From contig CAZSWF010000002.1 in NCBI GenBank assembly GCA_964610995.1, forward strand, positions 6,338 to 70,337: a stretch of 64,000 nt of DNA, written 5' to 3'. A program made the translations under genes and the position numbers. Below, piece by piece: positions 2,708-56,046 of this stretch (position 1 is the stretch's first letter; the number at the start of each line of letters is the position of its first letter). The DNA comes from an uncultured Candidatus Saccharibacteria bacterium. Its GTDB lineage: Bacteria > Patescibacteriota > Minisyncoccia > Phycocordibacterales > UBA9973. The notes beneath the pieces were generated by a model. It had not been told where the DNA came from and did no database searches. It saw nothing but the letters and a program-made list of their open reading frames with translations.

Positions 2708-3777
2708 TCACCCTCAACGTTATCAAAATCTTTTTACCTACTGCACTTGCCTTCCTTATAGGTATTGCGATCACGCCCACACTCACGGACTTTATGTATC
2801 GTCACAAGCTCTGGAAACGCAAACCTCGTACCGAAGGAGAAACCATCACCAATGCTGACTTTGCCAAACTTGAAAACAAAGCAGAGACCTCTACACCGCG
2901 TGTCGGTGGTGTGATCATCTGGTTGGCTGTACTCGCAACTGTTGCACTCATGTGGCTCGTATCACGAGTGTTTCCTACAGAACTCTTGGCCAAGCTCGAC
3001 TTCTACAGCCGCAACCAAACATTGATCCCGCTTGCGAGCCTTGTATTTGGCAGCTTGCTCGGACTGCTCGATGACTTTTTTGAGATTCGTGGCAGAGAAG
3101 GTGTGACCCATAGCAACGACAAAGAAATCCGTTTTCGATATATAAAGATCGGGCTCATCTGTGTGATCGGGCTCGTGATCGGAGCATGGTTTTATGTGAA
3201 GCTCGGCATGACCGGTATTTCGATACCATTTAGTACAGCGATCCTACCGCTCGGTACATTGTTTATTCCTTTTTTCATTTTGGTGCTGGTGGCAGTGTTC
3301 TCAGGCGGAGTGATCGATGGCATGGACGGACTTGCGGGTGGGGTGCTCGCGATCATTTTCTCTGCGTATGCGATTATTGCATTTGGGCAAAGCCAGATCG
3401 ATATCGCAGCGTTTTGTGGAGTAATCGCAGGATCAATACTCGCATTTCTATGGTTCAACATTCCACCTGCGCGTTTCTACATGGGAGAAACAGGAATGAT
3501 GGGACTCCTTGTGGTACTTACTGTTGTAGCATTTCTTACTGACACTGTACTCTTGCTACCACTGATCGCACTCCCACTCGTGGTTTCGAGTGCGTCGTCT
3601 TTGATTCAAATCTTTTCATACAAGTACTGTGGCAAACGCAGGGTGTTCAGGGTTGCGCCATTGCACCACCACTTCCATGCACTTGGCTGGTCTCGTGAGA
3701 AAATAGTCATGCGATACTGGGTTGTTTCTATTATTGTCGCGATTCTCGGTGTCGTAATTGCACTGAGTAGCAAATAG
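2704..3777 (+). CDS. mraY: phospho-N-acetylmuramoyl-pentapeptide transferase
   Basis: Multi-TM protein with DGMDGLAGG, FNIPPARFYMGETG and APLHHHFHALGW, which are MraY hallmarks. Confidence 0.9.
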   Translation: MITLNVIKIFLPTALAFLIGIAITPTLTDFMYRHKLWKRKPRTEGETITNADFAKLENKAETSTPRVGGVIIWLAVLATVALMWLVSRVFPTELLAKLDFYSRNQTLIPLASLVFGSLLGLLDDFFEIRGREGVTHSNDKEIRFRYIKIGLICVIGLVIGAWFYVKLGMTGISIPFSTAILPLGTLFIPFFILVLVAVFSGGVIDGMDGLAGGVLAIIFSAYAIIAFGQSQIDIAAFCGVIAGSILAFLWFNIPPARFYMGETGMMGLLVVLTVVAFLTDTVLLLPLIALPLVVSSASSLIQIFSYKYCGKRRVFRVAPLHHHFHALGWSREKIVMRYWVVSIIVAILGVVIALSSK

Positions 3778-3778
3778 C

Positions 3779-4900
3779 ATGCGCAGTATTTTACACAAAG
3801 AATCACAAAAGCCATTTGATCGATACTTTCTTGGTATTGTTGCAGTGATCACACTTATTGGGCTATTTTCTTTTGTATCTGCATCGCTCGGTATACTAGA
3901 GAAAAGTGAGAGTAAGTTCTATGGGGTACTGTTCAACCAAATAGTACTCGGACTCGTCGGCGGATCCCTCGCCTTGTGGATCACGATGCATATCCCATAT
4001 CTATTTTGGCGCAAGCACGCGTTTTATATATTTTTAGCAACACTTGTATTAACAATGCTTGTATTTGTTCCAAGTCTTGGGTTCGAACATGGGGGAGCAC
4101 AACGGTGGATCTCTATCGGCCCTCTATCCTTTCAACCAGCAGAATTTCTCAAGCTCGGCTTTATCATTTATTTTGCGACATGGCTTGCCTGGACACACAA
4201 ACAGCAACAAGATATGAAGTTCAAAATCGTACCATTGATCGTACTCCTCGGCATTATTGCTACGATTCTTTTAAAACAACCTGATAATAAAAGTTTGATC
4301 CTCATCACCACGGCAGCATGTGCTATGTTGTTTGTCTCTGGAGTTTCTTGGAAAAAGGTAGGGCTGATTATCGGTATAGGGATCGTCGGCATTGTGTCAC
4401 TTGCATTTTTTCGACCATACGTCATGGAGCGTATCGAAACGTTTATCAATCCATCCTCTGACCCTCGAGGATCATCGTATCAGTTGCAGCAATCTCTGAT
4501 TGCTATTGGGTCAGGAGGGTTGTTTGGGCAGGGTTTGGGACAGAGTGTGCAAAAGTTTGGATACCTACCAGAACCACAAGGTGACTCAGTGTTTGCGGTC
4601 ATAGGTGAAGAATGGGGATTTATCGGATCAGGCATTTTGGTTATATTATATATTTTCTTGGCAGTACGCGGACTCAAAATAGCGATGCGTGCACCTGACA
4701 ACTTTGCACGATATCTGGTAGTAGGTATTACGACATTGATCGTAGCTCAATCGTTTCTCAACATTGCGTCTCTGCTCGGACTGTTTCCATTGACCGGCGT
4801 ACCACTCGTCTTTATTTCTCATGGAGGGACCTCGCTTGCGATCGCGCTCGCAGCAGTCGGCATTATTCTCAACGTGTCAAGATATCAAAAAAAGGTATAA
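3779..4900 (+). CDS. ftsW: SEDS-family cell division/elongation protein (FtsW/RodA)
   Basis: RWISIGPLSFQPAEFLK, GQSVQKFGYLPEPQGDSVFAVIGEEWGF and PLVFISHGGTSL are SEDS motifs. The gene sits between mraY and murG. Confidence 0.85.
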   Translation: MRSILHKESQKPFDRYFLGIVAVITLIGLFSFVSASLGILEKSESKFYGVLFNQIVLGLVGGSLALWITMHIPYLFWRKHAFYIFLATLVLTMLVFVPSLGFEHGGAQRWISIGPLSFQPAEFLKLGFIIYFATWLAWTHKQQQDMKFKIVPLIVLLGIIATILLKQPDNKSLILITTAACAMLFVSGVSWKKVGLIIGIGIVGIVSLAFFRPYVMERIETFINPSSDPRGSSYQLQQSLIAIGSGGLFGQGLGQSVQKFGYLPEPQGDSVFAVIGEEWGFIGSGILVILYIFLAVRGLKIAMRAPDNFARYLVVGITTLIVAQSFLNIASLLGLFPLTGVPLVFISHGGTSLAIALAAVGIILNVSRYQKKV

Positions 4901-4910
4901 TACTCAGTAT

Positions 4911-6047
4911 ATGAAAATCTTACTCACAGGCGGTGGTACCGGCGGACACTTCTACCCACTCATGGCTATAGCCGAAGAACTCAACAAGCTTGCAGACGAA
5001 GAGCGCATTATCAACATGAAGCTCTACTATATGGCAGACAAGCCATATGACCCCGACATACTCGAAGAACAATTTATTACCTTCATCCCAATCACTGCAG
5101 GCAAGCTACGTGTCTACTTTTCATTGAAAAACATACTCGACATTGGCAAAACCATGATCGGTGTGGTCACTGGGCTAGTAAAAGTGTTCCAGCTCTACCC
5201 AGACGTCATCATTTCCAAAGGAGGGTACGCGGCGTTCCCAGTACTTGTGGCGGCCAAACTCTTGCGCATACCGACAATCATCCATGAGAGCGATACCGTA
5301 CCAGGGAGAGTCAATAAATGGTCAGGTAAGTTTGCACGACGTGTCGCACTTTCGTACCCTGAAGCTGCACAGTACTTTGATCCCAAGAAAATATCAGTTA
5401 CCGGTCAACCCGTCCGCAAGAACCTCATTCACCCCGTACGCGAAGGTGCAAAAGAATTTTTTGAATTACCCAACAATTTACCAGTCATTGGTATTTATGC
5501 AGGATCTCTCGGTGCAAAAGCGATCAATGATGTGGTTGTGACGATCGTGCCCGAACTCATAAAAAAGTATCAAATCATTCATCAAACAGGAGACAAGACA
5601 TATGACGAGATCACCACAGAAGTACGCATCTCACTCGGAGACGACACCAAGCGCAGTCGATACAAAGCATTCAAATCACTCAACAGTGTGCAGTCCAAGG
5701 TATTTGCGGGCGCAGTAGATCTCGTGATCGGCCGAGCAGGGTCTACAATATTTGAGTTTGCAGCATGGGGCAAGCCATCAATCATCATTCCCGGCAGAGG
5801 AGAAGTATTTCACGGAGACCACCAACGCAAAAATGCGTATCACTACGCTCGTACAGGGGCCTGTGTAGTCATCGAGGAAGCAAACCTCACTGCTTCGGTA
5901 CTATTGAGCGAGATCCAGTCCATTCTCGACAACAAAGAGCTCTACGAAGCCATGAGCAAGCACGCGCACGATTTCTTTATACCTACCGCAAGTCGTATGA
6001 TCGCTACTGAAGCCCTCACTATTGCACTGTCTCACGAGAAGCAATAA
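4911..6047 (+). CDS. murG: undecaprenyldiphospho-muramoylpentapeptide beta-N-acetylglucosaminyltransferase
   Basis: MKILLTGGGTGGHFYPLMAI is a GT28 N-terminus. The start is trimmed to the ATG at 4911 to avoid overlap with ftsW; the 4821 start in the ORF track is unlikely. Confidence 0.85.
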   Translation: MKILLTGGGTGGHFYPLMAIAEELNKLADEERIINMKLYYMADKPYDPDILEEQFITFIPITAGKLRVYFSLKNILDIGKTMIGVVTGLVKVFQLYPDVIISKGGYAAFPVLVAAKLLRIPTIIHESDTVPGRVNKWSGKFARRVALSYPEAAQYFDPKKISVTGQPVRKNLIHPVREGAKEFFELPNNLPVIGIYAGSLGAKAINDVVVTIVPELIKKYQIIHQTGDKTYDEITTEVRISLGDDTKRSRYKAFKSLNSVQSKVFAGAVDLVIGRAGSTIFEFAAWGKPSIIIPGRGEVFHGDHQRKNAYHYARTGACVVIEEANLTASVLLSEIQSILDNKELYEAMSKHAHDFFIPTASRMIATEALTIALSHEKQ

Positions 6048-6879
6048 CTCCTTTGTGATCTGCGTACACGTAGGTAAACGATGCGCCCAGGAAAAATATC
6101 TGAGCGGAATAGTATATCCATACGAGTATACCCACAAGCGAAGATGCACCCCCAAATACGTCGACATGCACGAGTAGCTTGATGTACTGTGCGATCAACA
6201 CATTGCCGAGCATGAACAGTGCTGCGGTAACAAACGCTCCAACAAAAAGTACCCGCCACGGTAGCGTACGGTTGGGCATGATGCGGTACATACCCATAAA
6301 CAACAATGTACCGAGCACTACTGGCGCGACAAACTGTAACAGAGTTGCAATACCCGCAAAGGATGAGGGGAAGGGAAGCGCCGTCTGTATAAAAGAAAAC
6401 AGTACTGTGGCACCCATCGAAAGCATGAGCAGTACTGCGAGTATAGGGATAAATGACAACAGTGCAATCTTGGTCCGAAAGAAATGGGTAATCCGTGCAG
6501 TCAGCGAAGCGTGTGTCGTGCGTTGTACCGGTACATCCCACAGCTCATCAATATCTCGATCAAGTTCAGCAAATGCTCCAATAGAAGCCACAAGTACAAT
6601 ACTTGCTCCCACTACTGCGGCGGTGACCGATACATCGGCTATTGGGACGTTATGCAATATCTCACTAATGTACATCGCCGCCTGTGGACCGATTGTAGTG
6701 ATCAGCTGGTGCATGAGTGCGTACTCGACCGTATCTTTACTAAAGAGCATCGCCGCTGCAGTGACCACAAGGAGAATGAGTGGCACAAATGACAGCATCG
6801 CGTAGTACGAGAGCGCTGCACCCATTCGTGGCGCATTGTGTGAGCGCCAGTGTCGGATGGATCTGATCAAGATATTCAT
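6019..6879 (-). CDS. YihY/BrkB family inner membrane protein
   Basis: N-terminal GAALSYYAMLSFVPLILL followed by multiple TM segments is the YihY/virulence factor BrkB pattern. Confidence 0.75.
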   Translation of the reverse strand: MNILIRSIRHWRSHNAPRMGAALSYYAMLSFVPLILLVVTAAAMLFSKDTVEYALMHQLITTIGPQAAMYISEILHNVPIADVSVTAAVVGASIVLVASIGAFAELDRDIDELWDVPVQRTTHASLTARITHFFRTKIALLSFIPILAVLLMLSMGATVLFSFIQTALPFPSSFAGIATLLQFVAPVVLGTLLFMGMYRIMPNRTLPWRVLFVGAFVTAALFMLGNVLIAQYIKLLVHVDVFGGASSLVGILVWIYYSAQIFFLGASFTYVYADHKGVIASRETVQ

Positions 6880-6936
6880 GCATGTAGTATATATGTTTTT
6901 TACGAGACTGACTTATCCACAGTCTTTTTCTTGCAT

Positions 6937-6952
6937 GTGAACGTTCGTTCAC
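6937..6952. promoter_or_regulatory. putative LexA (Cheo/DinR-type) operator GTGAAC-N4-GTTCAC
   Basis: A perfect inverted repeat GTGAACgttcGTTCAC matches the Gram-positive SOS box core GAAC-N4-GTTC. It lies between divergent yihY and the small ORFs leading to lexA. Confidence 0.5.
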
Positions 6953-7004
6953 CTATACTAAATACAGGTCGCGATTATTACAAATAACTTGTCTTAACAC
7001 TTTT

Positions 7005-7193
7005 ATGACACGACACCAATACACACAAAACATACACAAACAACTTCAAGCGTTAAACGAACGGATCGATTACAAGATCATGCACGGACAGAGTTATGCC
7101 GATGATTCTCGCCGTCACAAAACACTCTTGCGTCAGATCGCTCGACAATCGAAACAAGGGTTCCTCGCACGTTTATTTCCAAGCCTCGCCTAA
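7005..7193 (+). CDS. hypothetical small protein (possible SOS-regulated)
   Basis: 62-aa ORF directly downstream of the putative LexA box and in the same orientation as lexA. Confidence 0.3.
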   Translation: MTRHQYTQNIHKQLQALNERIDYKIMHGQSYADDSRRHKTLLRQIARQSKQGFLARLFPSLA

Positions 7194-7198
7194 CTACT

Positions 7199-7384
7199 AT
7201 GAACACTCCATTCCAATCTCTCGTTCACCAAGAAATGATACGCCTCGAACAGCTCGTCCATGAAAACGACTCGTTCTCTAACAGCCTCGCGCAGTATGCC
7301 CGGAAAAACGGTATACTTCTGGGGAGACGTAGTCCTACCTGGGGGTGGCTCTCTATGGTACGCGTTATGCAGTTTCTCCTCTAA
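7199..7384 (+). CDS. hypothetical small protein (possible SOS-regulated)
   Basis: 61-aa ORF between the previous small ORF and lexA, with tight spacing. Confidence 0.3.
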   Translation: MNTPFQSLVHQEMIRLEQLVHENDSFSNSLAQYARKNGILLGRRSPTWGWLSMVRVMQFLL

Positions 7385-7390
7385 TCATTT

Positions 7391-7954
7391 ATGGATACCG
7401 ACTACAAAAACAAACTGATCGCATTTCATCATAGTCACAAACGTATGCCGACATATACGGAAATGATGTCGCTTTTTGGATTCAAATCCAAGAACGCGGT
7501 CGCACGTATCGTCAGCAAAATGATTGCAGCAGGTATCGTCACCAAGGACGCACTGGGCAAACTACTACCCACCACCATGTTTACCGGCATGCCATTGCTC
7601 GGCTCGGTCAAAGCAGGGTTCCCATCAGCAGTAGATGAAGTCCTCGAAACACTCAACCTCGAAGACTACCTAATCAAGAAAAAGCGTGAGACATATATGG
7701 TAGAAGTAGATGGCTACTCGATGATCGATGCACACATCACCGATGGCGATATCGCAATCGCAGAGCGCACCAACGTCGCTAAAAATGGTGACATCGTGAT
7801 CGCCAACATTGACGGAGAGTTCACTATGAAGTATTTACGAACCGACGGAAAAAAAACTTGGCTCGAACCCGCTAACAAAGATTTCAAACCTCTCTATCCT
7901 CGAGAAAGTCTAACGGTGGTAGCGATCATTAGGGGAGTGATACGCAAATACTAG
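7391..7954 (+). CDS. lexA: LexA repressor (S24 peptidase)
   Basis: N-terminal wHTH, Ala-Gly cleavage region (VKAGFP), VDGYSMIDAHITDGDIAI and GDIVIANIDGEFTMKYL are S24 Ser/Lys dyad motifs. Confidence 0.85.
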   Translation: MDTDYKNKLIAFHHSHKRMPTYTEMMSLFGFKSKNAVARIVSKMIAAGIVTKDALGKLLPTTMFTGMPLLGSVKAGFPSAVDEVLETLNLEDYLIKKKRETYMVEVDGYSMIDAHITDGDIAIAERTNVAKNGDIVIANIDGEFTMKYLRTDGKKTWLEPANKDFKPLYPRESLTVVAIIRGVIRKY

Positions 7955-8904
7955 TCAGAACCTTCAACGCTCACTCTTTGTGCTGCCTCTTTCTCTATAG
8001 CAGGGAGGTTTTCTGTTATTAGAGTATTGAGGTCATCAGCCGTCAAAGTTGTCGCGGTAGGATCCTCAGCAAGCTTTTTCCAAGGAGCAGTCTTGCCATA
8101 GCCATACTCTCCAAAAATAATAGTAGGGGTACCTGTAGCCAGCACCTGCTGCTCATCAGGGCTAACTATCCATTGATCTGCCCATTCGTATACCCACTGC
8201 GCATCGGCTTCTGTCATACGCACACAGGAATGACTTGCTGGGTATCCAGGAAGCTCGTATTGATGGAGAGAAATACCTTGTGCGTTGTCGAGGTTGAAAT
8301 ACCAGGGAAGAATCCACTCATCTTTGATACTACTAATGACAAGTTTACCTTTCCAGTTGGTGAAGTAGAGTTTACTAGGCGTTGGGGTATCTTTTTTGCC
8401 AGTACTTGTAACCATCCACCGCACAAGTGTACCGTTTTCGTATGCGCCAATAGCTTGAATGCGTTGGGAAACTAAGAGAAGTTTCGGAATATCTTTGGCG
8501 GCGTCGAGGACACTAGGGAATGGGGAGAGTGCACTCCAATCTGTAAGCTCAGAAGGAATTGTGATCGTCGTGTTTTTTACAATGTGTTTATCGTCGAGAC
8601 GGTTAAACGTCAGTACAAAAGGGACCTTACTCAACCCAACTTCATCTGCGATTTCTGCACCAGGTTTGTCACTGGTTACGACAATAGACCGGTACGAAAT
8701 CTTTGATTCAGGAGGAGCAATAGGTGCTTGGGGGTCGACTACTATATCTTTTGCTGGTGTGTCTAGAGCAACAGACACACCCTTGTCTGGTCCCGTAGCA
8801 ATAAAATAAAGACCAGTACCGACCAAAACCAACAAGAGCGTCGAAATCACGTGGTGTTGTTTGATCATTTTGTGCTTCATATATCTATTGTAACGCACAA
8901 TCAC
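7951..8904 (-). CDS. L,D-transpeptidase (YkuD domain) with N-terminal membrane anchor
   Basis: The C-terminal GTPTIIFGEYG...HSCVRMTEADAQWVYEW matches the L,D-transpeptidase catalytic His/Cys motif. Confidence 0.75.
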   Translation of the reverse strand: MIVRYNRYMKHKMIKQHHVISTLLLVLVGTGLYFIATGPDKGVSVALDTPAKDIVVDPQAPIAPPESKISYRSIVVTSDKPGAEIADEVGLSKVPFVLTFNRLDDKHIVKNTTITIPSELTDWSALSPFPSVLDAAKDIPKLLLVSQRIQAIGAYENGTLVRWMVTSTGKKDTPTPSKLYFTNWKGKLVISSIKDEWILPWYFNLDNAQGISLHQYELPGYPASHSCVRMTEADAQWVYEWADQWIVSPDEQQVLATGTPTIIFGEYGYGKTAPWKKLAEDPTATTLTADDLNTLITENLPAIEKEAAQRVSVEGSD

Positions 8905-11229: not shown

Positions 11230-11803
11230 TACTATAAATAATTACTTCTAATGCCCGTAGTATACTAGCAAAACGCATTTTGCCATAGAAAAACCCTTGC
11301 TTGGTAGCAAGGGCTAAGGGGTTGTAAAAACGATACGGAGTACCCTGTATCAATCTCATAATACGCTGATTGGAGAGATGTTGTAGTATCCACTTCTTTT
11401 TACTGAAAATGGTTTTCGATCGATATCGTACTACACCACTGACACCTTCGTATGAATAAATGATGTTTATACCATTTTTCAACAAAAACGTATCGAGTCT
11501 TTTGGGATCTTGGGTCACCCAAATATGCCTCCATGCACCAGTGGCTTGTACGGGGCTCAGAGCTATATCGTACCTGGTGGGAATCCCAGTCATAATACGC
11601 GGCAAGTCCTTGCTGATAGGAGTGCAATAGCTAACGTATGCAATGAAGCGTTCAGTTTTAGAAAGGGTAGATAGCCTTTGAGAGGTTCCGGTCTTGATCA
11701 TTCCACAAGCAGCAATCAAGAGGTACAAGAGTTTTTTCATGGCAATATTTTTAATGATGAAAATTGTTTTGTTTATACTAAAATAAATATGGACATATGT
11801 CAA
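11084..11803 (-). CDS. hypothetical lipoprotein (3' end uncertain)
   Basis: Probable start MKKLLYLLIAACG (lipobox LIAAC) near 11740. The ORF reads through a terminator-like hairpin at 11289-11309 and overlaps the next gene by about 146 bp, so its 3' end is unclear. Confidence 0.45.
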   Translation of the reverse strand: MTYVHIYFSINKTIFIIKNIAMKKLLYLLIAACGMIKTGTSQRLSTLSKTERFIAYVSYCTPISKDLPRIMTGIPTRYDIALSPVQATGAWRHIWVTQDPKRLDTFLLKNGINIIYSYEGVSGVVRYRSKTIFSKKKWILQHLSNQRIMRLIQGTPYRFYNPLALATKQGFFYGKMRFASILRALEVIIYSNEENYWNKCRYTCYCGSCNEYWSRYRSSASTDIKNCTSRYQSKDWSCC

Positions 11804-11850
11804 GTTTGTGTTACTCTATACTTTTATACAAGCGTGATAAAATAAATAAC

Positions 11851-12519
11851 ATGAACATCCTCATCATTGATGATGACGCAGATATACGCTCGTATCTTTG
11901 CGAAGCATTTCTTGATGAAGGATTTATAGTTGATGAAGCTGCAGATGGTTATACTGGCCTACAAAAAGCTCGCATGTCTCAATATGACATCATCGTGCTC
12001 GACTACAACCTTCCACATAAAACAGGTGCAGATATTTGCACAGAAGTGCGCCGGACCAACACCACTACTCGCATTATCATGCTCTCGATTGTCGGCACTG
12101 TTCCTGTGAAAGTCGACTTGCTCAACAGTGGTGCTGATGACTACCTCACCAAGCCATTTGTGTTTAGTGAACTACTTGCACGAGTGCGTGCACTCTTGCG
12201 CAGACCAGAGAAACTCCAAGACCGTGTGCTCAATATGGGGACACTCACGCTCGACACCGATCGTCATCTCGTCACCAACAAAGATAAACAGATACTCCTG
12301 ACTCCCAAAGAATTTGCTCTTCTCGAATACTTTATGCGACATCCTGGACGCATACTCTCGCGTATGGCAATCCTCGAACATGTATGGGGAGTAAATGCAG
12401 ATCCATTTACCAATACCATAGAAACACATGTATTGAACTTGCGTCGCAAGCTCGGTGATCAAACAAATAAAGAAATTATCCACACGATACCTGGTGTCGG
12501 ATACAAGATAGTAGGGTAG
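11851..12519 (+). CDS. OmpR-family response regulator
   Basis: MNILIIDDD receiver domain with a Lys-Pro-Phe motif and a C-terminal winged helix (LTPKEFALLEYFMRHPGRILSR...GYKIV). Confidence 0.85.
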   Translation: MNILIIDDDADIRSYLCEAFLDEGFIVDEAADGYTGLQKARMSQYDIIVLDYNLPHKTGADICTEVRRTNTTTRIIMLSIVGTVPVKVDLLNSGADDYLTKPFVFSELLARVRALLRRPEKLQDRVLNMGTLTLDTDRHLVTNKDKQILLTPKEFALLEYFMRHPGRILSRMAILEHVWGVNADPFTNTIETHVLNLRRKLGDQTNKEIIHTIPGVGYKIVG

Positions 12520-12546: not shown

Positions 12547-13332
12547 ATGCTCGAGTCCCGAGTATGGTCCATGCGCTCCAAAAAACAGGTGCCGGCACAC
12601 AGCCAGCACATCCATCAACTTGAAAAGATTCGCGAGTTGTATAGATTCGCAGAGTTTGGCCGACTATCGTCTGGTCTTTTTCATGACATCATCAACCCGT
12701 TGACTGCTGTGTTGTTAAACATAGAACAAGCTCGCTCGAACCACCACAACCTTACAAAGGTCAAGAAGTGTCTCGACCAGGCATGCGGTGCGGCGCATCA
12801 TATGGAGCGATTTATTGTTGCGATCAAGCACCAACTCCACGACGAGAAAACACTCGCATACTTTTGCCCATGTACAGAGATCAGATCGGTCGGAGACATT
12901 CTCTCGCACAAAGCTCGTCTCGCGGGTGTGCGACTATCGTTTTCATTGACGGCTACCACACCACTCTATGGCAGTACTACACATTGGACACAGATCATGC
13001 TCAACCTCATCAGTAACGCGATCGATGCATACGACGACTCTGATCAGAAAAAACGACAACGTGTCGTCAGTGTCACGTGTACCAGTGTTGATGCCATGCT
13101 CGAGTGCACGGTATCCGATCATGGTGTAGGTATCGCACGATGTCATTTGCGCAAAATATTTGATGCATTTTTCAGTACGAAAATAACCTGCATGGACAAG
13201 GGGACAGGGGTAGGGCTGTCTATCGCCAAAGACTTGGTAGAAAAAGAGTTTGGTGGCACGATCACCGTACAGAGTGTGCGACGGTATGGCACGACGTTTA
13301 CCGTGAGCATACCGATACTCCGGAAACTTTAG
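12547..13332 (+). CDS. sensor histidine kinase (soluble, no TM predicted)
   Basis: H-box FHDIINPLT, N-box NLISNAIDA, G1 DHGVGI and G2 GTGVGLSIAKDLV. It lies downstream of the response regulator. Confidence 0.8.
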   Translation: MLESRVWSMRSKKQVPAHSQHIHQLEKIRELYRFAEFGRLSSGLFHDIINPLTAVLLNIEQARSNHHNLTKVKKCLDQACGAAHHMERFIVAIKHQLHDEKTLAYFCPCTEIRSVGDILSHKARLAGVRLSFSLTATTPLYGSTTHWTQIMLNLISNAIDAYDDSDQKKRQRVVSVTCTSVDAMLECTVSDHGVGIARCHLRKIFDAFFSTKITCMDKGTGVGLSIAKDLVEKEFGGTITVQSVRRYGTTFTVSIPILRKL

Positions 13333-41458: not shown

Positions 41459-42475
41459 TTACAACGATTTTTCAAGTTCGATGAGCTTTTTAACTCCATT
41501 ATAAAGTTGCTCATAAATCTCACGTTCAGTTACCCCTAAACGACGTTTGTTGGAAATGTCGTAAATACCATCTGAAGACTCAGAATGCTCTCCGTGTACT
41601 CCACGGATCGAAAGTCCTAAATCTTTGCATACTTCATTGAAGTTACCCGAAGCAGAAAGCTTAGGAATTCTGATATGCACAGACGCGCGCATTGCTGTTC
41701 CAAGATTGGTTGGGCAAGTTGTGTGGTAGCCACGAACATCATCAAATGCGAAGTTAATCTTTTCATTGATGAAGTTGAGCGCAGTTGCGAGCCGTGTAAA
41801 GACTTCGGCAATGTCAGCTCCTGGCTGCATGCTAATGATGCGCATACTATCTTCTTCTGAAACCCATACAAGGAATTTCTTGTCATCAGAAAAGAAAATG
41901 CCGCGGTTCTTTGGCCAGTCACGGTTTACACCTGCACTTTCCAAGAAACGGTCACCCTGTTTGAACAAGAAGTGATCTTCCACCATTTTTGCACGAACTT
42001 CTTCACTCATGCCATCAAGGGGGAAATATTCACCCTTCAATGCTCCGGGAAGCTGTTTTAATGCTTCAATAATTTCAGACTCCATAGCAGCTCGATCTTC
42101 GCTGGAAATAGCTGAAGGAAATGCGTACTTCGCAAAATTGCGACCAACACGGATACGGGTGGATACCACATAATTACCCTCAGGATCCAAATTTTCAACA
42201 GGAAGCCCAGTGAGCGAAAAATCACTTTTGTGACCGCTCATATCATAATGGTGGTATTCCTTGATAATTGGATCAAGAAGTGGCGAAAGCATGGTATAGG
42301 ACTCAGGATCACCTGCGTAGATGCCAATACTCGAATCTGGATTATCAATACCAGATTGAATTGCTTTTTGTAGTGTCCAGCCATGTGGTGTTACTACGTT
42401 TTCTAACTGCATTTTCACTACTTCACTGTAGTGTTTTTTCATTAACATGTCGGGGTTTGTTGTAATTTCTGTCAT
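41459..42475 (-). CDS. arginine kinase (eukaryote-type phosphagen kinase)
   Basis: CPTNLGTAMRASVHI active-site signature. GIYAGDPESY...LDPIIKEYH, FLFKQGDRFLESAG...RGIFFSDDKKFLVWVSEEDSMRIISMQ and RGVHGEHSES...DISNKRRLG closely parallel invertebrate arginine kinases, not McsB. Confidence 0.85.
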   Translation of the reverse strand: MTEITTNPDMLMKKHYSEVVKMQLENVVTPHGWTLQKAIQSGIDNPDSSIGIYAGDPESYTMLSPLLDPIIKEYHHYDMSGHKSDFSLTGLPVENLDPEGNYVVSTRIRVGRNFAKYAFPSAISSEDRAAMESEIIEALKQLPGALKGEYFPLDGMSEEVRAKMVEDHFLFKQGDRFLESAGVNRDWPKNRGIFFSDDKKFLVWVSEEDSMRIISMQPGADIAEVFTRLATALNFINEKINFAFDDVRGYHTTCPTNLGTAMRASVHIRIPKLSASGNFNEVCKDLGLSIRGVHGEHSESSDGIYDISNKRRLGVTEREIYEQLYNGVKKLIELEKSL

Positions 42476-42544
42476 AAGAACAATAGTTTACTGTGAATTT
42501 TTAAATAATACTATCTTATAAGGCTTTTTTGTCAATTACACAAC

Positions 42545-47626: not shown

Positions 47627-48061
47627 CTAGAGCACTCCGATCCCACCGAGTCTCTCTGCGAGCTCGTCTGCACGAGTCTCTACGGTGCGCTTGTATGTTT
47701 TCCAGGTGTCTTCGTCCCAGAGTTCGACACGTGTATGGACACCGACCACTGCTATCTTGCCACTGAGTCCTGCCCTATCCCGCAAGAAATCCGGGATAAG
47801 TATGCGTCCATTTTGATCGACCGAGACTTCGGTTGCACCTCCGAGGAGGTAGCGGTTGAAGCTACGGGTATCAGCTTGGAGCATTGAGCTCTCTGCGAGT
47901 TTGCTCGTGATACGTGCCCACTCTTTGGTTGTAAATACAAACAGACACTTGTCGAGCCCTGGGGTTACTACCACACTTTTGCCCATTTCCTTTCTGAACT
48001 TCACTGGAAATGAGAGCCGTTTTTTATCATCAATTGTGTGGATGTATTCGCCGATTAACAT
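47627..48061 (-). CDS. mraZ: transcriptional regulator MraZ
   Basis: Duplicated DxxxR motifs (IDDKKRLSFP, VDQNGRILIP) are typical of MraZ. Confidence 0.85.
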   Translation of the reverse strand: MLIGEYIHTIDDKKRLSFPVKFRKEMGKSVVVTPGLDKCLFVFTTKEWARITSKLAESSMLQADTRSFNRYLLGGATEVSVDQNGRILIPDFLRDRAGLSGKIAVVGVHTRVELWDEDTWKTYKRTVETRADELAERLGGIGVL

Positions 48062-48186
48062 GATTTCTTTACTTTACCACTATTTCCCACTTCGTTCCAT
48101 TATACTCCACTTCTTTCCACAAGCGCAAACATCGTATGTGTGGATAACAAAATCCCCCAGTATCCTGGGGGTTTCAATACTAGTAT

Positions 48187-51892: not shown

Positions 51893-52186
51893 CTACACTT
51901 TTGCTATTACTTCTTGTGCAAGCAATGCACGCTTTGCACGAGGACCGCCGCGGTTGTACTCTCCGACGCTTCCATCAGAACGAACCACGCGGTGACACGG
52001 CACAGTTGGATCGTAGTTACCTTTCATCACTGTCCCCACAGCACGAGCAGCGTTAGCATTCCCAGCTTTCTTTGCAACTTCTGCATAGGTCATCGTCTTG
52101 CCTTTTGGGATCTGACGCACAACATCACGCACCTTATCTGCAAATGATTTCACGTGCGCATTATTTGACGATCGGGTGTGGGACAT
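51893..52186 (-). CDS. MGMT-family protein (O6-alkylguanine-DNA alkyltransferase DNA-binding domain)
   Basis: TYAEVAKKAGNANAARAVGTVMKGN...PCHRVV contains the PCHRV active-site motif. Confidence 0.8.
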   Translation of the reverse strand: MSHTRSSNNAHVKSFADKVRDVVRQIPKGKTMTYAEVAKKAGNANAARAVGTVMKGNYDPTVPCHRVVRSDGSVGEYNRGGPRAKRALLAQEVIAKV

Positions 52187-52460
52187 TGAGCACTTCTTTG
52201 AAAAATGTCACGATCACAGTATTTTCACCTTCGGTGATGAAGTCGGTGTTGAAGGTACAGTTATAAGCGACAGTTTGGCGATACCCAAATGCAACTTTGG
52301 TAAAACTCAGGTCATCGATCGAAAGGTTGCAGCCTTCTTGGAGTGTGGACTGACTTTCGTACACTTTGTTGTAGATCAGCTGACGAGCATCTGCAGGCTC
52401 AAACCATGGACACCATGCAACAATAATAAGTCCTACAACTATAAGTGCGAAAAATGCTTT
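52161..52460 (-). CDS. hypothetical small membrane-anchored protein
   Basis: Probable start MKAFFALIVVGLIIV. About 100 aa. Confidence 0.35.
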   Translation of the reverse strand, partial: KAFFALIVVGLIIVAWCPWFEPADARQLIYNKVYESQSTLQEGCNLSIDDLSFTKVAFGYRQTVAYNCTFNTDFITEGENTVIVTFFKEVLNVPHPIVK

Positions 52461-52641
52461 CATATAAGTACTAGTATAGCGCACTAGTAGAAATGGCACC
52501 AAGTTTCGTGTGGACTCCAGTATGGTTTTTGTAAACCAGATAGCTAAGGAATTGGAGTATCTGGCTTGGGTACTAAAAGGAGATTATGAGAAAAGTGTCT
52601 AAATTACTGTCGGTACTGTCTTTAGTGTCTAGATATTAAAA

Positions 52642-52665
52642 AGCCCCTTCAAGAATGAGGGGGCT
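52642..52665 (-). terminator. rho-independent terminator
   Basis: AGCCCCTT-caagaatg-AGGGGGCT. On the minus strand it is followed by TTTTTAATAT, downstream of the 52689-54539 gene. Confidence 0.65.
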
Positions 52666-52688
52666 GTATAAAGAACTTCTTCTAATTA

Positions 52689-54539
52689 CTATTTACCAAA
52701 GTTGGTAATTCGACGTCCTAAGTTGTTTACTGGATTTTCAAGTATGGCAGGCTTTGCCCATACACCAGAAATCAATCCTGTATTTGCGGTCTTGGACTTC
52801 GTGATTCTTTGTTTTAGGAAAAATGGTTCAACCTCTACGTTGTAAAAACTAGCGGCCGCACTATCCATTTCGGAAAGCTTCCTATAAGCAAGAAGAACAT
52901 GTTTAGTGCTCCCGATGGAAATAGCTGACCGAAGCATTGCTGCTAATATCGCAAGAGATTTTATATTGCCCTGATCTAACCATTCACATAAAGATTTGTA
53001 TTCCCCATAGTGAAGCAGTTTTGCGGCCTTTCTCTCTTCTGCGATTCTTAATTTTTCAACCTCAGTTGTCGCTGTTTTAAAAGTTCCAAGTAGGTTAAGT
53101 TTTTTCTGTAAGAGACTAAGCCGATTCAAATCCTTTTCCTCTGTAGGTACAAATTCTGAATAGAACTCGAGTGATCTTACTGTCAATTCACATTCCTTTG
53201 TCTGTAGGGCTACTAAATCCTTTTGAATCTTTTCAACTGCCCGAAGAATGGTGTCGTGATACTCTAGAAAAAGTATCCTTTCTAGCACAACCTTAACAGC
53301 GTATTCATTTTTAGTTTTCATCGCACGACAAAGGAGACTGGAAAGGACGTTAGCAGATGTTGTTTTTGCAACACTGTGTTTAATCATTGCTTCTATCTCA
53401 GTATCGGAAGAAAAAGATCCTTGCTTGAATAAGCCATAAAGTACATCACGGTCGAAGGGTTTAATCGTATATGCCTCTTTACAGGACTTGATAAGGGCAG
53501 GATGCCGATAATCTATCGTAAGCGCCTTTCTACAATCCTCAAGCCTTTTTGCCAACCAGATCGGTCTGTCTTTAAACAGCATAATTTCAAGATTTGGAGG
53601 AACTTCAAAACCACTAATCGCGGCCATTCTATTGAATAGGACTTTTGAATTAACCTTTTGTACTAACCACCACAAAATGAGAGATTCTGTCTGAGAATTA
53701 TTTTTCCCTTGGCAATACAAGCACATTGGTACAAAAGTTGTTAAAGAGCCTCTCTCTACTAACCTCTGTACATCATTGGCTATAATTTTTTTATACCGCT
53801 TCTCGAATGTCTCAGCTGTATCAACAGCCCAGGCAACATCTTCCCGAACAAACGGTATTTGAAATATATCCTTTTGACCCTCATTTTCTAAAGAAGAAAA
53901 ACAGGTTGAAAATATAATTTCAGCTATTTCTCTTTCTCCTAGGTACAAGTAGTACCAGTAAAATGAGAGTAAAAGGTTTCTGCACCCGTATTCAAGGAGT
54001 TTTGATGTAAGGGCAACAAGACAATCGGTTCTCTTTTCATCTTTGGTTCTTAAACAAAAACGATACATTGCATCCCATGCTACCCACTGCCAGCTACTTT
54101 TGCGAGCTTTAACCGCAATTACTTTTTCAACAAATTGCAGTTGCTGGTCATTAATGGGCCACATTCTTTTATGAGCAAGAAGGAATACAATTGTTGATTC
54201 CACACCTTTGTCTAATACATATAGAGTGATCATATCTTCATAGGTGGAAAAGAAATAGGGTTCATTTTCAATTTTATTGAAGAAATCACTTTCTTTATAA
54301 GCATGAATTTCTTTAGCCCTTTTTGTATTTATCTTGCATCCTGTTAAATCTTCAATGAGGGATAAGCGCTCAGCCCCCATTAAATCACGGTGATAACACA
54401 AAACTATAAATGCTTCCGTGTTTTTACCTTCTTCGATAAGCGATTTTGCTTTGGAAATAATTCCTTGTTCATCCGATGTACCGATTTCTAAATCGGACAT
54501 CCTGTTGGATTGATTGGCGAAACGTGTCTTTTTCTCCAT
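52689..54539 (-). CDS. large hypothetical protein (616 aa), AT-rich island gene
   Basis: Long uninterrupted ORF of low GC, predicted helical, with no recognisable catalytic motif. It is the last gene of a three-gene minus-strand operon. Confidence 0.5.
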   Translation of the reverse strand: MEKKTRFANQSNRMSDLEIGTSDEQGIISKAKSLIEEGKNTEAFIVLCYHRDLMGAERLSLIEDLTGCKINTKRAKEIHAYKESDFFNKIENEPYFFSTYEDMITLYVLDKGVESTIVFLLAHKRMWPINDQQLQFVEKVIAVKARKSSWQWVAWDAMYRFCLRTKDEKRTDCLVALTSKLLEYGCRNLLLSFYWYYLYLGEREIAEIIFSTCFSSLENEGQKDIFQIPFVREDVAWAVDTAETFEKRYKKIIANDVQRLVERGSLTTFVPMCLYCQGKNNSQTESLILWWLVQKVNSKVLFNRMAAISGFEVPPNLEIMLFKDRPIWLAKRLEDCRKALTIDYRHPALIKSCKEAYTIKPFDRDVLYGLFKQGSFSSDTEIEAMIKHSVAKTTSANVLSSLLCRAMKTKNEYAVKVVLERILFLEYHDTILRAVEKIQKDLVALQTKECELTVRSLEFYSEFVPTEEKDLNRLSLLQKKLNLLGTFKTATTEVEKLRIAEERKAAKLLHYGEYKSLCEWLDQGNIKSLAILAAMLRSAISIGSTKHVLLAYRKLSEMDSAAASFYNVEVEPFFLKQRITKSKTANTGLISGVWAKPAILENPVNNLGRRITNFGK

Positions 54540-54617
54540 GTTTTTATTTTTTTGTAAGTGAACAATTTTATATCGACTTTATACTACATTGCATATTTAA
54601 TATGTCAATGTCATCAG

Positions 54618-55088
54618 TTACTGAACTTTGCTTCTAAACACTTCCAGGAGAAAAGGTATTTTATCTTTTAGAATGTTTATATTATTACCTATGTCGTTTA
54701 CCTTATCACTCATACCTGAAAGAATTGTAGTAGTTTCTTTTTGTTTTACTTCCAAGACTTCAATTTTATCCCCATGAGAATAGACTAAATAGCCCATCCA
54801 AACTAAAGCTGCGATTGCCGCCACAATAAGGCTAACAAAAATATTACTTAACAGATTTTCAAAACCAAATGCATCTCTTAGTCTCAAACGAAAAGGTTTC
54901 TTTGTCTTTCTACTTTTTTGAGGCTTTTTTTCCTCCTCAAAATTTGAAGAATCAGTTGTATCAACAGTATTAAATTTCTTTTCAGTTGTTTCTAAACCTG
55001 AAGATTTTAATAAAAAACGCTTATATGCATTTTTCTCATAAGGAGTTTTTCCTACATGTTCAGATCTAATGTATCTACTATTTTTCAT
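54618..55088 (-). CDS. hypothetical single-pass membrane protein
   Basis: 156 aa with a basic N-terminus (KPQKSRKTKKPFRLRLR), one TM segment (IFVSLIVAAIAALVWMGYLVY) and a coiled C-terminus. Confidence 0.45.
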   Translation of the reverse strand: MKNSRYIRSEHVGKTPYEKNAYKRFLLKSSGLETTEKKFNTVDTTDSSNFEEEKKPQKSRKTKKPFRLRLRDAFGFENLLSNIFVSLIVAAIAALVWMGYLVYSHGDKIEVLEVKQKETTTILSGMSDKVNDIGNNINILKDKIPFLLEVFRSKVQ

Positions 55089-55776
55089 TTTCGTTAAAAA
55101 TCCAAGGATAATACTTATTATCTAAGTATGAAATAGCATCTTTTATAAAAGCTTCTGTATCGCAGTCTCTTAGATCGTAGAAACTTGGATCATAGTAATA
55201 TTGGAAATCCAAATTTGCTTCAAACTTACCATCTTTTATTTCAGTAAAATTATAAATATAATTTTTGAAATCGTTTACATTTTTTCTATAAAGAGATTCT
55301 TTACTCTCTTCTTTTGATGAGAATGTTAAGTTTATGTTCTGAGCTTTATTTATTTTTGAGTTTGTAATTAATGGTATAACTGCTTTGAGTTTTTCTATAT
55401 TTGAAACTTCATGTCCAAAAATAACACCTATTCTGCTAATATTAACTAGCTCAAATTTTCTAAAAATGTGCTCTTTTAAATAAGGCAATACCTTATCGTT
55501 TAGGAATTTTATTTTTGTATCAAAATTACCTTCGACTTTCAATTTTATAATTAAATCATCTGTATTGATTCTAATATATTCATCTGTTTCAGTATTATAT
55601 AAGATTCTTTCTCGAAGATTGGTATCTCGAACCTCTGGGAACATTTCTGCTCCAAATGGCGACTCTTCGTCGTACAAAATATGGTCTATAATCCTTCCAG
55701 CCTCGTCTCTCAAACGAAAAGATCTCGAATGTCGTATACCTAGAATAACTGAAGTTATGTCCTTTTTTAGATTCAT
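55078..55776 (-). CDS. hypothetical protein (232 aa)
   Basis: AT-rich ORF whose stop overlaps the next gene's start by about 10 bp, with no motif I can assign. Confidence 0.45.
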   Translation of the reverse strand: MNLKKDITSVILGIRHSRSFRLRDEAGRIIDHILYDEESPFGAEMFPEVRDTNLRERILYNTETDEYIRINTDDLIIKLKVEGNFDTKIKFLNDKVLPYLKEHIFRKFELVNISRIGVIFGHEVSNIEKLKAVIPLITNSKINKAQNINLTFSSKEESKESLYRKNVNDFKNYIYNFTEIKDGKFEANLDFQYYYDPSFYDLRDCDTEAFIKDAISYLDNKYYPWIFNENEK

Positions 55777-56046
55777 AGTTAGAGCTTAATATATCATTAG
55801 TATCAAAAATGTCCATGGGGAAGCTTAAGTTGCAATGGTTCCAATTCCCCGAAGGCATTACGTTCGATGGAAAGGATTATGGAACCGTACAAACAGCAGG
55901 TGTTTTCAAGACAAAAGAGGCATTTCTGCCCCTTCAGTCTTCTACGGTGGACTTGGGAGTTCAATTTTGGAACAGATTTGCTGTGGAGTGTCAATATCTT
56001 GTCCATATTATGCGTGAATACAATGCTGACTTGAAAAGATAAAAAA

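Follow-up and report, generated by a model that had tools for sequence, protein, structure and literature searches.

The window analysed here, 64,000 nucleotides (nt) of contig CAZSWF010000002.1 from an uncultured patescibacterium, contains three closely packed genes on the + strand that have the appearance of an SOS operon. These are orf62 (7005-7193), orf61 (7199-7384) and lexA (7391-7954), which lie where a preliminary description of this DNA had placed them, with 5 nt between the first pair and 6 nt between the second. The first two open reading frames (ORFs), hereafter orfA (orf62) and orfB (orf61), encode proteins of 62 and 61 amino acids (aa), respectively, and lexA encodes a 187-aa repressor. 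Ahead of orfA lies a palindrome with the features of a LexA operator, embedded in a predicted promoter, and beyond it a divergent gene (6019-6879, - strand) whose Pfam match to the BrkB/YihY family of membrane proteins bears out its earlier designation as yihY.

The lexA product contains a Peptidase_S24 domain (PF00717, E = 5.6e-25, residues 68-177) and scores above the cutoff of TIGR00498, the LexA equivalog model of NCBIfam. Residues A75-G76 (within VKAGFP), S110 and K147 are invariant among 21 homologues. A profile built from the window protein and 20 homologues aligns over residues 9-185 with the full-length LexA structures 3k2z, 1jhh and 3jso, and the N-terminal region is predicted to adopt the LexA-type winged-helix fold. 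By these sequence features the product of 7391-7954 is a full-length, bona fide LexA with a predicted Ala-Gly cleavage site and Ser/Lys dyad, and the preliminary identification of the downstream gene as lexA is upheld.

The palindrome, GTGAACGTTCGTTCAC (6937-6952), consists of perfect 6-base-pair (bp) inverted arms, GTGAAC and GTTCAC, around the 4-nt centre GTTC, and contains the GAAC-N4-GTTC inverted repeat that had previously been claimed for this region. It is located within the core promoter itself. The 17-nt spacer between the -35 hexamer TTGCAT (6931-6936, + strand) and the -10 hexamer TATACT (6954-6959, + strand) is exactly filled by GTGAACgttcGTTCAC (6937-6952), with the -35 directly abutting the operator and the -10 beginning 1 nt past it, an arrangement that identifies a predicted sigma-70-type promoter. 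The short GAAC-N4-GTTC core is by itself unremarkable within the window, where it occurs three times against 1.17 expected, with at least three matches in 15 of 100 shuffles; the significance of the site comes from its conservation, described below. The remaining two core matches (27737 and 49892) are inside long ORFs. The version of the operator with 12 specified bases occurs only once in the window; the sites closest to it have two to three mismatches and are nearly all intragenic. A weak site at 42476, ahead of an arginine-kinase-like gene, was judged to be a chance match. Consistent with the preliminary description, which reported no second box directly upstream of lexA, a scan of the window revealed none between 6953 and 7391, and neither a box nor a consensus promoter was found between the small ORFs and lexA (7005-7390).

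Conservation of the operator and core promoter

The comparison set comprised 80 genome loci whose LexA proteins share 61-83% identity with that of the window, giving 81 loci when the window is included. A loose search upstream of lexA, for GAAC-N4-GTTC with at most one mismatch, identified one site in every locus with enough upstream DNA. GT and AC border every one of these sites without having been specified in the search, and the flanks are invariant in 76 of 76 loci. The sequence GTG[AT]AC-N4-GTTCAC is present in 76 of the 81 loci, the window included; four of the five loci without a site end too early upstream and the fifth, L038, is masked. In L038 the run of Ns (3700-3709) falls exactly on the LexA operator, and the flanking DnaA box (discussed below), -10 and orfA are intact. 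Across the loci the arms are constant, whereas the centre takes several forms (GTTC, GAGC, GATC, GCTC, GAAC and others), with no compensatory changes. The invariance of the arms in the absence of compensatory change supports a protein-binding site rather than an RNA or DNA hairpin. Since the first base of the centre is G in 72 of the 76 loci and the last is C in 70, the consensus of the family is GTGAACG-NN-CGTTCAC. In the 655 kilobases (kb) made up of the window and the loci there are 71 exact matches to the operator, against 0.08 expected by chance, all of them at the promoter of the lexA operon, and no further site with one mismatch or fewer was found. A chance origin of the operator is excluded.

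The core promoter hexamers are also conserved. The -35, which always abuts the operator, is TTGCAT in 38 of the 76 loci and TTGACT in 10, with an invariant T at -6, while the -10 is TATACT in 58 and TATAAT in 13. In six loci the ATG of orfA begins 6 nt past the -10, which points to leaderless transcripts and provides independent support for the promoter assignment. Immediately downstream, the window carries a GGTCG element (6967-6971, + strand) at approximately +1 to +6 of the predicted transcript; GTCG occurs 6-11 nt past the -10 in 34 of 72 distinct lexA-operon promoters, compared with ∼5% expected. The element does not belong to any stable RNA structure, and a search of the 5' untranslated region (UTR) against Rfam returned no match. 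A candidate RNA hairpin in the UTR (ACAGGT...ACCTGT, with TAATTA repeats) was rejected on the basis of a mean RNAfold z-score of +0.2 over 65 UTRs and the empty Rfam search.

Two layouts are found downstream of the box. In 53 of the 76 loci the box is followed by orfA (61-72 aa) and then lexA, and the distance from box to lexA is ∼212-500 nt (mostly 225-340). In the other 23, the window among them, orfB (54-75 aa) stands between orfA and lexA and the distance is 418-482 nt. Given the conserved gene order, the 5-nt and 6-nt gaps and the lack of a second box, a single-operator operon is the best reading of the locus, which supports the earlier suggestion that lexA is co-transcribed with the two small ORFs from one operator. 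A metagenome contig (Ga0207952_1000017; L131, 2920-3715) displays, unlike all other loci, the reversed order box-lexA-orfA, demonstrating that the linkage of orfA to lexA is independent of gene order. The preliminary description had looked to relatives for conservation of the box and of both small ORFs. This was found for the box (76 of 81 loci) and for orfA (all 76 box-bearing loci), but not for orfB, which is confined to a subclade (23 loci).

In contrast to the unit itself, its upstream neighbours vary. The divergent gene is yihY in only ∼10 of the loci closest to the window, murG lies upstream in 15, and unrelated genes are found elsewhere. The promoter therefore travels with the small-ORF/lexA unit, and yihY, a divergent neighbour by accident in the closest relatives, does not belong to that unit. 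In these closest relatives (L001-L018 and L068), as in the window (3779-6047), the lexA operon is directly downstream of ftsW-murG, with or without yihY between them, and the SOS operon thus physically adjoins cell-wall and division genes.

A scan of metagenomes with the 14-base consensus yielded 120 matches, of which 27 have a -10 directly after the box. In 23 of these the box precedes an orfA homologue and in two (L160 and L178) it precedes lexA directly; the last two (L083 and L169) proved on inspection to be orfA operons as well. The other matches are mostly in contexts that are rich in guanine plus cytosine (GC) or are not promoters. Essentially all the matches with promoter layout are lexA operons, and the scan is uninformative on further members of the regulon. 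In other lineages of Patescibacteria (L160, L172, L178, L188, L096 and L114) the identical operator immediately precedes lexA, and both orfA and a consensus DnaA box are missing; in L172 the -10 abuts the box and lexA is directly downstream. Where measured, the GC fraction of these orfA-less metagenome lineages is 0.46-0.54. The observation that the box tracks lexA with or without the small ORFs argues that LexA, and not the orfA product, is the ligand of the box. In L160 the ATG is 7 nt past the -10 and the transcript looks leaderless. On another contig (Ga0073936_10069269; L085, 2860-3093), the same LexA box, a TATAAT and the two DnaA-like boxes TTATCCACA and TTATCCACC are located upstream of a different gene (MKKTEINSGVVIYQTKSGSIELKGDF...), which may be another member of the regulon; the contig ends ∼40 codons into this gene.

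The small proteins encoded ahead of lexA

The first gene of the operon, orfA, encodes a basic protein predicted to form a helical hairpin. Homologues are present at 76 of the 76 box-bearing genome loci and at 25 metagenome loci, and a profile search of 1.84 billion representatives retrieved 299 clusters, nearly all of 60-90 aa. Sequence searches of Pfam, NCBIfam, PHROG, PADLOC and PDB gave no match to orfA, and fold searches recovered generic hairpins only. The family is unannotated and, at all orfA-bearing loci that were examined, is linked to lexA. In the AlphaFold2 (AF2) model, which has a mean predicted local distance difference test score (pLDDT) of 86.6, helices span residues 3-26 and 32-57, and the invariant residues of the family (N18, I21, D22, I25, G28 and H38) are clustered around the hairpin turn. 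The median net charge is +8 and the longest uncharged run has a median length of 9 residues. The closest pair has a ratio of non-synonymous to synonymous substitution rates (dN/dS) of 0.11; orfA is a genuine gene that evolves under purifying selection.

After a linker of variable length, orfA proteins carry a tail of the form [KR]-[GS]-F-[FL]-x-[RK]-[LF]-[FL], which in the window is QGFLARLF and in which the AF2 confidence falls. The recurring F-[FL]-x-[RK]-[LF]-[FL] is reminiscent of C-terminal membrane-targeting helices of the MinD/FtsA type, exemplified by the sequence KGFLKRLFGG of Escherichia coli MinD (PMC5471200). The likeness is, however, one of pattern: the hydrophobic moment of the tail (0.67) is not significantly better than that of shuffled tails (0.61), and the idea of an amphipathic membrane tail was kept as a pattern resemblance only.

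Several public gene calls for orfA are over-long. They run upstream through the operator and the -10 and so acquire the spurious N-termini ...ERSFTYT... or ...GEHSFTYT... (proteins P0240, P0245, P0260, P0285 and P0181, and ORFs in L089, L107 and L132). As ...ERSFTYT... is the translated operator plus -10, these calls point to the same promoter in distant members of the orfA family. A 698-aa protein (P0154) matches the orfA profile in seven separate stretches (profile positions 6-35); it could be built of repeats or coiled coil, or have arisen by tandem expansion of the orfA N-terminal helix.

The second small gene, orfB, is fast-evolving and restricted to one subclade. Every locus with the longer orfA-lexA gap (23) keeps an orfB frame of 54-75 aa. 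Besides a shared N-terminal helix motif (TPFxxLxxELxRLE), the proteins have a hydrophobic tail at the C-terminus; just three residues are invariant, and the longest uncharged stretch has a median length of 12 residues. A comparison with Pfam revealed no domain, two homologues were found in databases, and the AF2 model is of low confidence (pLDDT 66). The dN/dS of orfB is 0.11 in the sole unsaturated pair, and its median is 0.68, with dS saturated in most pairs. Profile comparison gives a weak match (probability 21.6%) between orfB and the N-terminus of orfA, a hint that orfB is a diverged duplicate of its neighbour.

A DnaA box upstream of the promoter

Upstream of the core promoter the 9-mer pattern TTATNCACA is matched by an exact TTATCCACA (6913-6921, + strand), which is the perfect consensus DnaA box (PMC8203912) and lies 9 nt upstream of the -35. 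The preliminary description had overlooked this element. The sequence TT[AT]TCCACA is found within 120 nt upstream of the LexA box in 69 of the 76 loci, 66 of them in the + orientation, and exact copies of the 9-mer number 66 at the lexA-operon promoter and only seven elsewhere in 577 kb. The position of the box relative to the core promoter is fixed. Among the 69 loci the gap between DnaA box and -35 is 1 nt in seven, 9-10 nt in 43 and 19-20 nt in 12, and these steps of one helical turn fit a factor that faces RNA polymerase from one side. In L131, the locus with reversed gene order, a DnaA-like box with one mismatch, TTGTCCACA, precedes the -35 by ∼20 nt. No DnaA box is present at five lexA promoters of loci that lack orfA, which is suggestive of an association between the box and orfA-bearing operons, in a distribution that is phylogenetically confounded.

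The phased consensus box suggests joint control of the lexA-operon promoter by DnaA and LexA, with DnaA binding deduced from the match to the consensus. Such joint control is known at uvrB and recN of E. coli (PMC6015884, PMC8203912), where, as here, a consensus DnaA box is found beside a LexA site at one promoter. The operon differs from these examples in that lexA's own promoter carries the dual site, with conservation throughout a whole class. A further parallel is provided by Sda of Bacillus subtilis, a small checkpoint protein activated by DnaA (PMC8203912), since in both cases the regulated product is a small helical-hairpin protein. The possibility that orfA is Sda was rejected, hhalign giving a probability of 0.8% for homology between the two.

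The window contains two other exact DnaA boxes. A second perfect TTATCCACA (48139-48147, - strand) is located between greA and mraZ, 10 nt upstream of the -35 of a putative mraZ promoter (TTGCGC, an 18-nt spacer and TATAAT), a distance that matches the one at the lexA-operon promoter. mraZ (47627-48061) heads the dcw division cluster, and GTGGG/AGTGG repeats resembling MraZ boxes are present between its -10 and ATG. The third and last exact box (12476-12484, + strand) is inside a response-regulator gene (11797-12519), in its 3' end. A TATACT follows 43 nt downstream, ahead of a histidine-kinase gene (12547-13332); the -35 at this position is poor.

Interpretation of the operon and other features of the window

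We read the region as an autoregulated SOS operon of a bacterium of the Paceibacteria (Patescibacteria, or candidate phyla radiation, CPR), and put the probability of this reading at about 0.85. LexA and DnaA binding, co-transcription and the functions of all the proteins are what we infer from the arrangement described above. In the proposed scheme, one sigma-70-type promoter would drive orfA, orfB and lexA as a single transcript, and a LexA dimer seated in the spacer palindrome would obstruct RNA polymerase. Upon DNA damage, LexA, stimulated by RecA, would cleave itself at A75-G76 through S110/K147 and so free the promoter; derepression would then raise the levels of both small proteins and replenish LexA, such that the system is reset. 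DnaA bound on a fixed helix face upstream of the -35 would modulate the promoter, making its output depend on both DNA damage and replication status. The effect of DnaA is probably activation, because its box lies upstream of a weak -35. The orfA protein would be a conserved effector or partner of the circuit, and orfB a lineage-specific companion that possibly arose by duplication. Our preferred guess is that orfA encodes a damage or replication checkpoint factor that would delay division or initiation.

This guess is favoured because small genes beside lexA in Firmicutes and Actinobacteria encode SOS division inhibitors, namely YneA, SosA, ChiZ and DivS (PMC6851548), and because an input from DnaA would fit such a role. 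These inhibitors are the products of divergent genes and have a single transmembrane segment, an extracellular C-terminus and usually a LysM domain (PMC6851548). The parallel is that a small gene of low conservation adjoins lexA and shares the LexA operator region with it. By contrast, orfA and orfB are co-directional with lexA, and their products have neither a transmembrane segment nor LysM. The preliminary description had noted that small SOS-induced proteins of this size are often toxins or division inhibitors; the transmembrane architecture of the known ones is not seen here.

The circuit as a whole resembles the autoregulation of LexA (DinR) in Gram-positive bacteria and Actinobacteria, with which it shares the GAAC-N4-GTTC core, an operator overlapping the lexA promoter, and a LexA with an S24 domain, an Ala-Gly cleavage site and a Ser/Lys dyad. 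It departs from DinR-type systems in its gene order, in which small proteins are encoded first and lexA comes last. The Cheo consensus of Bacillus is CGAAC-RNRY-GTTCG, with C/G flanks and an A/T-rich centre, whereas the operator described here has T/A flanks (GT...AC) and a G..C centre. The label Cheo- or DinR-type, applied in the preliminary description, is thus appropriate for the core and not for the flanks (GT/AC in place of C/G) or the G-NN-C centre. A LexA motif and regulon have reportedly been described for the SOS network of Patescibacteria, and a LexA box upstream of lexA in this group has probably been published already. While a lexA-autoregulated operon is of a known kind, the class-wide orfA family, the strict operator-in-spacer layout and the phased DnaA box set this one apart.

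Several observations, including the departure from the Bacillus box, weigh against this interpretation of the operon. The cutoff of TIGR00498 (110.95 bits) is passed by the window LexA by only ∼1 bit (111.9), and the Pfam LexA_DNA_bind model (PF01726) gave no match at its N-terminus, indicating that the DNA-binding domain is divergent. No DNA-repair gene carries the box in the window or in the 80 lexA flanks; the window genes examined included dcw and cell-wall genes, a two-component system, transketolase and greA, with no repair gene among them. The link between box and LexA accordingly draws on the logic of autoregulation and on motif similarity. A generic scan of 6700-8100 for promoters and terminators called no promoter, because TTGCAT agrees with TTGACA at only three of six positions, which is below the threshold of the tool; the silence of the scanner was rejected as evidence against the promoter, as both hexamers are near-absolutely conserved across the loci. 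The phylogenetic confounding of the DnaA boxes and the result obtained with shuffled orfA tails belong with these points. With respect to a division inhibitor in particular, the absence of a transmembrane segment or LysM domain from orfA is unfavourable, and co-transcription with an autoregulated lexA would imply basal expression of orfA, which is awkward for a protein of this type.

Alternative explanations concern either the palindrome or the small ORFs. It is highly improbable that some other regulator, and not LexA, binds the palindrome, or that the palindrome represents a chance or structural hairpin. In favour of such a view, the flanks and centre depart from the classical Cheo consensus, and the finding of a single site leaves the assignment to LexA without the backing of a regulon. 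The GAAC-N4-GTTC core is, however, that of known LexA boxes, and the site invariably lies in the promoter serving lexA, even at loci that lack orfA. The invariant, uncompensated arms and a stem of only 6 bp are at odds with a hairpin, as are the 71 exact matches with chance. The view that the small ORFs encode SOS-induced type I toxins or membrane-depolarizing peptides of the TisB/DinQ kind is suggested by their size, their position under a LexA box and the hydrophobic C-terminal tail of both products. It fits poorly with the orfA product, a strongly basic, predicted soluble hairpin whose uncharged runs fall short of membrane-spanning length. Neither an antisense RNA nor an Rfam element was found, such that both hallmarks of TisB and DinQ, the hydrophobic membrane-spanning peptide and the antisense RNA, are missing here, and co-transcription with lexA would entail constitutive basal expression. 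We consider toxins of this kind very unlikely.

An alternative that deserves more credit, although we hold it only tentatively, is that orfA encodes an SOS accessory factor, one that would bind LexA or RecA and so modulate either repression or cleavage, as do gp7 of phage GIL01 and DinI/RecX. This would explain why orfA always shares an mRNA with LexA, a linkage maintained at all the genome and metagenome loci that carry orfA whatever the gene order, and genes of one operon frequently encode proteins that bind each other. The orfA product is small, helical and strongly basic, and the invariant polar residues around its hairpin turn suggest a specific binding surface. Against such a role, four orfA-less Patescibacteria loci (L096, L160, L172 and L188) have the same box and a LexA of similar length with no orfA nearby, and LexA therefore does not need orfA. 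Moreover, no similarity of orfA in sequence or fold to any solved protein was found, and no direct comparison with gp7 or DinI was made. In the case of orfB, its limited distribution, the three invariant residues, a median dN/dS of 0.68 with saturated dS, the low-confidence model and the scarcity of homologues would all be expected of a decaying, non-functional spacer or leader, and lexA might additionally, or instead, have its own unrecognized internal promoter. The persistence of the frame in all 23 loci with the longer gap, the conserved N-terminal motif and tail, and the dN/dS of 0.11 in the only unsaturated pair argue for a functional protein, and the scan of 7005-7390 described above argues against an internal promoter. 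We thus regard this explanation as improbable.

Returning to the preferred reading, in which orfA encodes a checkpoint factor of an SOS operon, a bolder and decidedly speculative extension is that orfA founds a new, CPR-specific checkpoint family. Release of LexA and input from DnaA would together control a basic hairpin that halts division or re-initiation, possibly at the membrane via its MinD-like tail, and the box at mraZ would make DnaA a general transcription factor of the cell cycle in such minimal genomes. The CPR/Patescibacteria are uncultured and genome-reduced, and almost nothing is known of their cell-cycle control. In this context orfA, the operator-in-spacer promoter and the phased DnaA box are cloneable parts for studying how damage, replication and division are coupled in minimal cells. 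The consensus GTGAACG-NN-CGTTCAC can be used directly for defining SOS regulons in thousands of Paceibacteria genomes, and can serve to mend gene calls in which the operator has been translated.

Two features of the window unrelated to the operon were also observed. A gene on the - strand (41459-42475) encodes an ATP:guanido phosphotransferase of the phosphagen (arginine)-kinase type with both the N-terminal (PF02807, E = 7e-22) and C-terminal (PF00217, E = 1e-72) domains; in a CPR bacterium of reduced genome such a kinase is probably unusual. Just upstream of this gene is a GC-rich hairpin terminator. In the region ∼52000-56000 the GC fraction is 0.32-0.40, compared with ∼0.46 elsewhere in the window, and three genes located there (52689-54539, 54618-55088 and 55078-55776) have no Pfam match on record; this low-GC region may be an acquired island.

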